64,000 nucleotides of DNA from positions 478 through 64,477 of the forward strand of contig DASXAG010000089.1 in NCBI GenBank assembly GCA_036406835.1, given 5' to 3'. The stretch is from Thermoanaerobaculia bacterium. GTDB lineage: Bacteria > Acidobacteriota > Thermoanaerobaculia > UBA5066 > Gp7-AA6. A program made the translations under genes and the position numbers. Numbering within the stretch: the stretch's first letter is position 1; each line of letters opens with the position of its first letter. Below, one piece after another: positions 9,420 to 10,262 of this stretch. Under the pieces are notes generated by a model that saw only the letters and a program-made list of their open reading frames with translations, made no database searches and was not told the DNA's origin.

Positions 9420-9435
9420 GCGGCGCCTTCGAAAA

Positions 9436-9458
9436 ACCTGTCCTCAGGGACGGTTTTT
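9436..9458 (+). terminator. Candidate intrinsic terminator downstream of wzc
   Basis: gaaaaaCCTGTCCtcagGGACGGtttttgc has a 6-7 bp stem with a 4-nt loop, flanked by an A-tract and a T5 run. It sits 17 nt after the wzc stop. Confidence 0.4.
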
Positions 9459-9584
9459 GCAACTGTCCCGATGGTCGGGTCGCCGAGAATCGGACAATGG
9501 TCCCTGTGGTATCATCGCCGCTCACACAAAGAACGGTTTGCCTCTCCCGATAAGGGTCCAGGCGAACGAAGGAGACCCGGGGCA

Positions 9585-10166
9585 ATGCCGCTCCTCAAGC
9601 GCGGGACGGAGATCTTTCCCAAGGAGATCTTCGAGTTGTCTCAGGGCGACGCTCCCTGGTGGGTGGCGCACACCCGGAGCCGGCAGGAGAAGGAACTGGT
9701 CCGCTGGCTGCTGCCGCGCGGTATTCCGTTCTACCTGCCCAACGAGGAGCGTTCGACGCGCCGCGCCGGACGCACGTTCGTCTCGTTTCCGCCCCTGTTC
9801 CCCGGCTACGTCTTCTTCCGCGGCGCCCCCGACGTCCGGCACACGGTCCTGCGGAGCCATCAGCTCGTGCGGATCCTGGACGTTCCGGATCAAGGGCTTC
9901 TGAATCAAGAGCTTCGGCAGCTCCGCGAGCTGCAGCTCTCCGGCGCCCCGCTCGTTCCGCTCGAGGAGATCGAGCCCGGGGACCCGGTCCGCATCGTGCG
10001 CGGACCCTTCCAGGGCTACAACGGCGTCGTCCTTCGCGGACGCGCCCGCCTCGTCGTTTCGATCACCATGCTGCGCAAGGCCGTGGCGGTCGAGCTCGAG
10101 AGGGACATGGTCGTCCCCCTCGTCTCGCCGATGGCCCGAAGAGACTCGGGAAGCGCCGTCGCCTAG
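9585..10166 (+). CDS. NusG-paralog transcription antiterminator (RfaH / UpxY / TaA-like): NusG N-terminal domain plus KOW
   Basis: Internal ATG at 9585 preceded by GAAGGAG. The NGN motif reads WWVAHTRSRQEKELVRWLLPRGIPFYLP. The KOW-like region reads GDPVRIVRGPFQGYNGVV. At 193 aa it is specialised-paralog size and sits immediately 5' of the large polysaccharide operon. Confidence 0.8.
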   Translation: MPLLKRGTEIFPKEIFELSQGDAPWWVAHTRSRQEKELVRWLLPRGIPFYLPNEERSTRRAGRTFVSFPPLFPGYVFFRGAPDVRHTVLRSHQLVRILDVPDQGLLNQELRQLRELQLSGAPLVPLEEIEPGDPVRIVRGPFQGYNGVVLRGRARLVVSITMLRKAVAVELERDMVVPLVSPMARRDSGSAVA

Positions 10167-10167
10167 T

Positions 10168-10190
10168 CGGGAGAAGGCGCTTCTCTCAAA
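10168..10190 (+). promoter_or_regulatory. Perfect hairpin GAGAAG-gcg-CTTCTC immediately after the NusG-paralog stop, in the leader of the big operon
   Basis: Seen directly at 10170-10186. No U-tract follows, so this is not a classic terminator. It may be a leader structure or attenuator. Confidence 0.25.
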
Positions 10191-10262
10191 TGATGCGATC
10201 CGAGTCGGTGAGCGGCCCTTTTCCGGCGTACACCGAAGGGGGCGGAGCCTGAGCAGGGAGCG

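Follow-up and report, generated by a model that had tools for sequence, protein, structure and literature searches.

Why does a gene of the NusG family stand directly before a 44-kb run of polysaccharide genes, and what is the role of the short sequence between the two, which recalls the ops element of Escherichia coli? The locus lies in a stretch of 64,000 nucleotides (nt), ~70% G+C, on contig DASXAG010000089.1 of a Thermoanaerobaculia bacterium; this whole stretch is called the window throughout. The gene (9585..10166, + strand) encodes a specialised NusG paralog of 193 amino acids (aa), and the sequence GGCGGAGCCTG (10241-10251) is, judging from related loci, the core of a conserved element of ~47 nt. 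The favoured answer, with a probability of about 0.6, is that the paralog is a processive antiterminator, the first cistron of a unit running into the 37-gene, 44-kb cluster, and that it is loaded at this ops-like signal.

The element between the paralog gene and the operon

Gaps of 165 nt before and 96 nt after flank the paralog gene, the second being the spacer (10167-10262) that precedes the first gene of the operon. Among loci whose proteins are 50-65% identical, the spacers are divergent except for a single conserved block, TCGGTG-(loop)-GTACACCGAAGGGGGCGRAGCCYG. A covariance model built from ten simple instances of this element finds it in more than 40 genome loci, directly downstream of the paralog and on the paralog's strand. 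In the window, with the filters off, the sole significant hit is 10211-10255 (37.1 bits, E = 2.6e-7); there is no second copy, the next hit reaching only 13.8 bits (E = 0.13). A sequence-only reading of this DNA had noticed ggcggagcctg at 10241-10251 but considered it too diverged to call. This caution was reasonable for a single sequence, since the bare 11-mer is by itself not significant (at least one occurrence in 19 of 100 shuffles of the window). It nevertheless understated the weight of a motif which forms the core of a conserved element: allowing up to two mismatches, a degenerate 21-mer would arise by chance only 0.02 times per window. Rfam 15, which includes the JUMPstart and ops-containing motifs, has no match at gathering score in the whole window, and at E <= 10 only a 12-nt chance match within coding sequence was obtained in 9400-10320.

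The center of the element is a mini-hairpin, P2 (GGC-GGA-GCC, 10241..10249, + strand), a candidate hairpin of the non-template DNA strand with an ops-like core. It is 9 nt long, with the consensus G(G/A/C)C-GRA-G(C/T/G)C. In the 112 loci where the paralog is accompanied by the element, the middle pair is G:C 95 times, A:T 14 times, C:G twice and G:T once, so that 111 carry one of the Watson-Crick forms G:C, A:T or C:G. Among 43 hits of the model, the inner C:G pair is invariant and the outer pair is G:C in 41, while the middle pair is G:C in 35, A:T in five and C:G in three, and is never unpaired; no unpaired case occurred either in an earlier tally of the middle pair (29 GC, 6 AT). A neighbour-joining tree of the paralogs requires ~10 changes of state at this pair; hence, the covariation does not stem from one inherited event. 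P2 is also predicted independently by RNAalifold. With regard to the protein, the exchange S91T is found in seven of 14 A:T loci versus one of 95 G:C loci, although it is confined to two lineages and the other A:T lineages keep S91.

Two minor observations concern the P2 pair. The two paralog copies of one metagenome-assembled genome (MAG; JBOGJN01), L005 and L020, are accompanied by elements with different middle pairs, GGCGGAGCC (G:C) and GACGGAGTC (A:T), respectively, a single case. In another locus (L072), a single partial paralog gene is followed by two tandem copies of the element (790-837 and 959-1006), each with a middle pair of the rare C:G type.

P2 is preceded by a second hairpin, P1 (10205..10240, + strand), whose 3' arm is the conserved CACCGAAGGG and which is a candidate pause hairpin of the nascent RNA. 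Of 101 non-redundant loci, 64 have a perfect (6/6) complement of the 3' arm CACCGA(AGGG) no more than 40 nt upstream of it, versus none of 101 control windows; the loop measures 4-29 nt. The two arms are TCGGTG (10205-10210) and CACCGA (10231-10236) in the window, with an alternative pairing of CCCTTTTCCGG with CCGAAGGGG. The distance from the stop codon to P1 is only ~20 nt in some loci. On its other side, P2 is followed by the dinucleotide TG (10250..10251, + strand), the candidate pause position (-1/+1); a YG is found here in 105 of the 112 loci. If the Y is taken as -1, the last transcribed base, the first G of P2 is at -10, P2 extends from -10 to -2, and P1 ends at approximately -11 to -15.

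The association was also recovered in the opposite direction, starting from the motif. Metagenome contigs were scanned for TACACCGAAGGGGNCGRAGNC with the covarying positions left free, yielding 120 loci, 97 of them with enough upstream sequence to be evaluated. In 72 of these 97, a paralog gene is located within 800 nt upstream on the same strand, the element following its stop codon after 38-137 nt in 51 loci and after 408-556 nt in 21. In one locus (L038), a MarR_EPS gene (6685-7032; TIGR04176, 146 bits against a cut-off of 88) is inserted between paralog and element; judged by the spacing alone, the same insertion would fit the 21 loci with the longer distance. Of the 25 loci without an upstream paralog, approximately eight resemble chance matches, with a P2 that cannot pair. 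In at least eight others (L084, L162, L173, L190, L121, L160, L180 and L202), the element (TACACCGAAGGGGGCGRAGCC) is followed after 0-25 nt by the start codon of a gene from a second, distant family of NusG paralogs (SWYALWTHSHCEQLV...), an arrangement like that of UpxY. The proteins of this second family are 25-28% identical to the first and score 80-92 bits with the UpxY profile, below its cut-off. Even here, GTACACCGAAGGGG is conserved, although the hairpin is placed differently. A Planctomycete variant, GTAACCCAC-N-GGG(G/A)CG(A/G)AGT(G/C)CGCGC, was found in six loci (L058, L060, L063, L075, L077 and L079), downstream of the paralog gene in all but L077, where it lies 61 nt upstream of the start. 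The agreement of the paralog-first and motif-first searches shows that the element goes with NusG paralogs in both directions.

The MarR_EPS gene points to another explanation, according to which the element is a site in duplex DNA, either the operator of a dimeric regulator such as MarR_EPS or a part of the operon promoter, and the paralog is merely co-located. GGC-N3-GCC is a small palindrome, so symmetric changes of the half-sites could mimic covariation; the spacing of the 21 further loci is compatible with such a regulator, and the transcription start site of the operon is placed by inference. On the contrary, a MarR_EPS gene is absent from the neighbourhood in most loci, the window included. 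The element always points in the direction of transcription and is markedly asymmetric, ACACCGAAGGGG being present on one side only, and the three types of middle pair would need a regulator co-evolving every time. No enrichment of TANNNT or extended -10 sequences was detected at a fixed distance between the 3' end of the paralog gene and the element in 84 loci. In the second family, the element is contiguous with the start codon or overlaps it, hence is transcribed, and it is with NusG paralogs, of two families, that it is associated. A duplex-DNA site is therefore considered very unlikely.

Two further features of the spacer lie upstream of P2. A block of 28 nt, GCGCTTCTCTCAAATGATGCGATCCGAG (10177..10204, + strand), differs by only 1 nt from its counterpart in L004, a related locus with 91% protein identity, while the flanks diverge; its GCGCTTC(C/T)..AA part recurs in L006, L007, L010 and L016. 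The stem GAGAAG-gcg-CTTCTC, to which the sequence-only reading drew attention as a leader hairpin, is indeed present in the 96-nt spacer (10171..10185, + strand), but its role as a functional hairpin was rejected: the left arm is GGGGGG in L004, so the stem is not conserved, and it is absent from the minimum-energy fold.

The paralog and its relatives

The extent of the gene given by the sequence-only reading is borne out by the translation and by the homologs: each of more than 100 is 193-197 aa long and aligns over the full query from residue 1. The in-frame ATG at 9471, which would give a longer form, is thus not used by the relatives. The statement that the protein is much shorter than the housekeeping NusG has to be corrected, since E. 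coli NusG has 181 aa.

The protein is composed of a 24-aa N-terminal extension, an NGN domain, a long linker helix and a KOW barrel. The NGN domain is recognized by Pfam (PF02357, residues 25-98, 36.4 bits against a cut-off of 22.2). The Pfam score for KOW is slightly under its cut-off (18.4 vs. 22.3 bits), but residues 124-178 of the family profile align with solved NusG KOW domains, that of E. coli NusG included (E = 4e-8), and a barrel is predicted, so both domains proposed at first can be retained. An AlphaFold2 model generated from 81 family members has a mean predicted local distance difference test score (pLDDT) of 79. The NGN domain is modelled with confidence (pLDDT ~90 over residues 11-110), residues 9-17 of the N-terminal extension are ordered, and residues 103-119 constitute the long helix. 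The C-terminal domain is predicted, at lower confidence (pLDDT 59-83), to be a five-strand beta barrel (residues 134-178) rather than the alpha-helical form of RfaH, although, on the basis of one model, fold switching remains conceivable.

The first 24 residues, MPLLKR..E.FP..LF.L, are conserved from Acidobacteriota through Planctomycetota. They constitute a family-specific extension, as all four NCBIfam profiles used for comparison, UpxY (NF033644), RfaH (TIGR01955 / NF006534), LoaP (NF033641) and nusG (TIGR00922), begin at residue 25. The top match of the window protein is UpxY, with 66 bits, under the cut-off of 100. The two RfaH models (38.7 vs. 144.5 and 22.6 vs. 124 bits), the LoaP model (33.6 vs. 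125) and the housekeeping nusG equivalog (31.5 vs. 135.7) also remain below their cut-offs. The same ranking is seen in the family: UpxY gives the best E-value for all 81 members tested, ahead of LoaP, RfaH and nusG, with all four models matched at E <= 0.001 except for one member without a nusG match. The best UpxY E-value among them is 2.1e-23, still under the cut-off, and the best for nusG is 5e-11. On these scores, the protein looks like a specialised NusG paralog outside the curated UpxY, RfaH, LoaP and nusG families, resembling in function a UpxY/RfaH-type system.

Could the protein simply be a general NusG, or a redundant copy without an operon-specific role, in an incidental neighbourhood? 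Among solved structures, E. coli NusG is the nearest to the family profile (E = 1e-12, chiefly via KOW), not RfaH (2e-4); the KOW loop GPF.GY.G is NusG-like, and an ordinary beta barrel is predicted for the C-terminal domain. Nevertheless, the score of 31.5 bits on the nusG equivalog is far from the 135.7 needed, and the secE-nusG-rplK context, whose absence had already been noted from the window alone, is missing in the window and related loci, the neighbours being wzc and the UDP-sugar dehydrogenase gene. The synteny with polysaccharide genes is conserved, one MAG has two copies and a dedicated cis element is present. This explanation is hardly credible. A search of the predicted model with Foldseek returned both NusG and RfaH chains. 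The profile alignment to RfaH spans residues 56-164 only, with a probability of 79%, and leaves the DNA-contact residues of alpha-1 outside; the invariant R90 of the paralog family is aligned with RfaH R73, the sole pocket residue so aligned. In RfaH, R73 is among the residues making the pocket for the flipped ops base T6 (PMC5995543).

The family is large, with at least 980 clusters at 90% identity. At least 509 matches were confirmed in a collection with one genome per species, mostly from Thermoanaerobaculia and other Acidobacteriota; Gemmataceae, Pirellulales and other Planctomycetota, and also Desulfobacterota, contribute members of ~40% identity. No literature on NusG paralogs of Acidobacteria or Planctomycetes was found, within an incomplete coverage.

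A proposed ops-like loading signal

The failure of the nusG equivalog, the first rank of UpxY, the recurrent synteny and an oriented cis element which joins paralog to operon together support the favoured reading, and so agree with the original suggestion of a specialised NusG paralog heading, and acting on, a long polysaccharide operon. From this we infer that the polymerase pauses, that the protein binds the element, that the target is DNA and not RNA and, finally, that antitermination ensues. Transcription would start at an extended -10 promoter-like element at ~9507-9515, with the paralog as first gene. Some 45-85 nt past the paralog stop codon, RNA polymerase would meet the composite ops-like signal. 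The nascent-RNA hairpin P1 would end ~11 nt upstream of the Y-G (10250/10251), and the polymerase would pause at T10250, helped by this hairpin. In the exposed non-template strand, GGC-GGA-GCC could then fold into a GCGNAGC-type mini-hairpin (P2). The pause would give the paralog time to bind, its NGN domain recognizing P2 and perhaps also the GTACACCGAAGGGG duplex just upstream. The paralog would then replace NusG, travel with the polymerase and suppress pausing as well as Rho-dependent and intrinsic termination over 44 kb.

The best-understood counterpart is RfaH of Enterobacteria (Zuber et al. 2018) with its ops element (GGCGGTAGCGTG in E. coli), a consensus pause in which a TG at positions 11/12 induces pausing and in which RfaH reads a non-template hairpin with a C3:G8 pair and a G4-A7 loop (PMC5995543). 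The window sequence GGCGGAGCCTG equals ops at 10 of 11 positions after deletion of T6. The invariant C:G pair corresponds to C3:G8, a TG occupies the pause position, R90 corresponds to R73, and the target is likewise a long surface-polysaccharide operon. Differences are also clear. The base T6, which RfaH flips into its pocket, has no equivalent in the window or in any of the 112 loci, so the 12-nt ops sequence GGCGGTAGnnTG is replaced by GGCGGAGCCTG; the loop is GRA instead of GGTA. According to PMC13037366, two classes of DNA mini-hairpin of extraordinary stability are known, GCGNAGC and GCGNNAGC; the core of the element, GCGGAGC or GCGAAGC, falls into the former and the ops core, GCGGTAGC, into the latter. 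A pause hairpin is part of the signal here, whereas ops is a hairpin-less class II pause. Finally, the paralog gene is linked to its target, while rfaH is monocistronic and works in trans, and the C-terminal domain is predicted to be a barrel instead of a helical hairpin.

In UpxY of the Bacteroides fragilis capsule operons (class 1; Saba et al. 2024, PMC11685472), a NusG paralog also heads its polysaccharide operon. Class-1 opsX has a NusA-responsive pause hairpin of the nascent RNA reaching -12 to -9, together with hairpins of the non-template strand whose stems are GCG-AGC; UpxY recognizes the upstream duplex as well (PMC11685472). The element resembles it in having a pause hairpin up to ~-11 and a small GCG...AGC-type non-template hairpin before the Y-G, a geometry deduced from sequence only, and the sequence conservation immediately before the bubble agrees with the contact to the upstream duplex reported for UpxY. 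Against this, the profile score is 66 vs. 100 bits, the 24-aa N-terminal extension is missing from the UpxY profile, and the phyla differ. There is no adjacent upxZ, the next gene being a UDP-sugar dehydrogenase, with MarR_EPS in some loci. The site follows the regulator gene, between cistrons 1 and 2, whereas that of UpxY lies in the leader upstream, and it is near-identical across species, while UpxY sites vary from operon to operon.

Two other systems are less close. LoaP of Bacillus velezensis (polyketide operons) is also encoded beside a very long biosynthetic operon, from which a leader containing a hairpin separates its gene, and is reported to bind an RNA hairpin and counter intrinsic terminators (PMC12691694 and PMC7819879). 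In comparison, the window protein reaches only 33.6 of the required 125 bits, no terminator follows the element, and its core is ops-like. TaA of Myxococcus xanthus is located within or at the head of the ~40-kb antibiotic TA operon that it activates (PMC7819879), a likeness of genomic arrangement.

The example of LoaP leads to the most serious competitor, in which the element acts as RNA: P1 and P2 in the transcript would be bound by the paralog or another factor, or would regulate the first operon gene at the level of translation or stability. P1 is most easily understood as a hairpin in RNA. In the RNAalifold prediction, P2 has a fourth G:Y pair (G:U in 23 sequences, G:C in 19), and the G:T middle pair of one locus would be G:U in RNA. 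P2 ends 13-28 nt before the start of the first operon gene, and CUUCUCUC, from the 10177-10204 block, could pair in the window with the GAGAGAA ribosome-binding region of that gene; this pairing is not kept in L004. LoaP provides a precedent as an RNA-binding NusG paralog (PMC12691694 and PMC11685472). However, an RNA stem of 3 bp closed by a triloop is marginal, while its DNA counterpart belongs to a very stable class (PMC13037366). Sequence and register fit the non-template hairpins of ops and class-1 opsX, with the YG at the right distance, which would be a coincidence for an RNA element, and the GTACACCGAAGGGG sequence is kept in the second family despite the different placement of the hairpin. 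An RNA function is thus judged rather unlikely, though it deserves more weight than the duplex-DNA site.

Loading at a DNA hairpin remains the preferred reading, but several points weigh against it. Folding is unremarkable in comparison with shuffles, for the leader (z = -0.26), for 10200-10251 (z = 0.03) and for P2 as DNA, which at -0.2 to -3.3 kcal/mol is indistinguishable from them; folding energy hence provides no evidence for the element here. The covariation of P2 cannot distinguish DNA pairing from RNA pairing, and the minimum-energy RNA fold of the window sequence lengthens P1 at the expense of the GGC of P2, making the two hairpins competitors at the RNA level. About one-third of the related Acidobacteriota and Planctomycetota loci are without a detectable element. 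The operon promoter may sit within the 3' end of the paralog gene. Moreover, the predicted beta-barrel C-terminal domain, lacking an RfaH-like autoinhibitory helical hairpin, makes the need for a specific site questionable.

A broader proposal combines three elements: a cis-loading device, a specificity code in the middle pair of P2, and one ops-like grammar common to at least two NusG-paralog families in Acidobacteriota and Planctomycetota. In such a device, the ribosome would release the fresh paralog ~45-85 nt behind the paused polymerase, each transcript loading its own polymerase; the G:C, A:T or C:G middle pair would insulate co-resident paralog/operon pairs. As a whole, this combination is speculative and unlikely to hold in all its parts.

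Among specialised NusG paralogs, a detailed understanding exists only for RfaH and a partial one for UpxY and LoaP. A large family from uncultivated lineages now gains a precise candidate recruitment signal, made up of a pause hairpin, a 9-nt hairpin whose compensatory mutants occur naturally, and a pause dinucleotide. This suggests that the ops principle, a non-template mini-hairpin at a consensus pause, extends well beyond Proteobacteria and Bacteroidota. The GCGNAGC class, one nucleotide shorter, would take the place of the GCGNNAGC class, and the placement of the site after the regulator gene would represent a different wiring. In practice, the element marks the starts of long exopolysaccharide transcription units in Acidobacteriota metagenomes and could aid heterologous expression of the clusters.

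Putative promoter region and polysaccharide cluster

Upstream of the paralog gene, an extended -10 promoter-like element, TGGTATCAT, is located at 9507..9515 (+ strand). Elements of the TGnTAnnAT type recur in this position in almost every related locus. Of 86 strict matches, 71 terminate 40-79 nt ahead of the start codon; counted by locus, 62 of 121 contain a match whose end falls 50-90 nt upstream of it. A generic sigma70 -35/-10 scan found zero sites in 9000-10700 and 50000-56000; the promoter call therefore rests solely on the comparative conservation of the extended -10. A transcription start at ~9522 would result in a 5' untranslated region (UTR) of ~60 nt. The simplest reading of the transcription unit is then promoter, ~60-nt 5' UTR, paralog, element and operon, presumably co-transcribed. 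The segment 9417-9590, which covers this putative UTR, is more stably folded than shuffled sequences (z = -2.15; 5 of 200 do equally well) and is nearly identical in L004; a hairpin may involve the AAGGAG ribosome-binding site.

The terminator-like hairpin that had been described between wzc and the paralog gene was found by a terminator scan, as CTGTCC-TCAG-GGACGG followed by TTTTT (9438..9458, + strand; stem-loop 9438-9453). Half-sites of the form CTGT[CA]C / G[GT]ACAG are also seen in the region upstream of the promoter (-220..-60) of many distant relatives, in 30 of 103 related loci versus seven of 103 control windows, and as an inverted repeat in six loci versus none of the controls. Further half-sites are located at 9464-9470 and 9492-9497 in the window. 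The inverted repeat at 9438-9453 may hence be an operator for a regulator, instead of or besides a terminator.

The gene map was derived from a frame plot of G+C at third codon positions (GC3), and the Pfam annotation upstream was taken from an identical contig of the Joint Genome Institute (L001). Genes on the + strand run unbroken from 4146 to 54288. The upstream export genes (4146..9419, + strand) encode a TPR protein, an unknown protein of 421 aa, a Wza-like Poly_export/SLBB protein and a Wzc-like Wzz and P-loop tyrosine kinase. In ~25 species-level genomes, the paralog is followed by the UDP-sugar dehydrogenase, the epimerase and Wzm/Wzt in the same order, with a spacer of 92-220 nt, whereas the distance to the upstream Wza-Wzc genes varies from 169 to 3679 nt in related loci. 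The paralog is thus tied to the downstream genes, not to the upstream ones.

The polysaccharide cluster itself (10263..54288, + strand) comprises 37 co-directional genes over 44 kb. The first 36 (10263-52184) are separated by gaps of at most 58 nt; the final gene (52342-54288) follows after 157 nt. In this last gap, aaacgggggagaagccgtg (52248-52266) bears a loose resemblance to the element but was rejected, as it is unable to form P2 and gives no covariance-model hit. According to Pfam, the cluster includes a UDP-sugar dehydrogenase, epimerases, a Wzm/Wzt ABC exporter and Polysacc_synt_2, and a nonulosonic-acid toolkit with PseB/PseC-like proteins, two NeuB, two CMP-transferases and a formyltransferase. 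Glycosyltransferases of families GT1, GT2 and GT4, deacetylases, Wzy_C and an initiating transferase (Bac_transf) are also encoded. The presence of two NeuB/CMP-transferase sets suggests two different nonulosonic acids, and the export parts belong to two routes, with Wzm/Wzt at 12711-14923, Wza/Wzc at 6343-9419 and a Wzy_C-type protein at 40990-42507. The first operon gene has three in-frame GTG codons, at 10263, 10275 and 10278; because of the Shine-Dalgarno-like GGGAGAG at 10266-10272, one of the latter two is favoured as the start, and the spacer would perhaps measure 108-111 nt. On the opposite strand, convergent with the end of the cluster (54307-60724), three large proteins with right-handed beta-helix and S-layer homology (SLH) domains are encoded.

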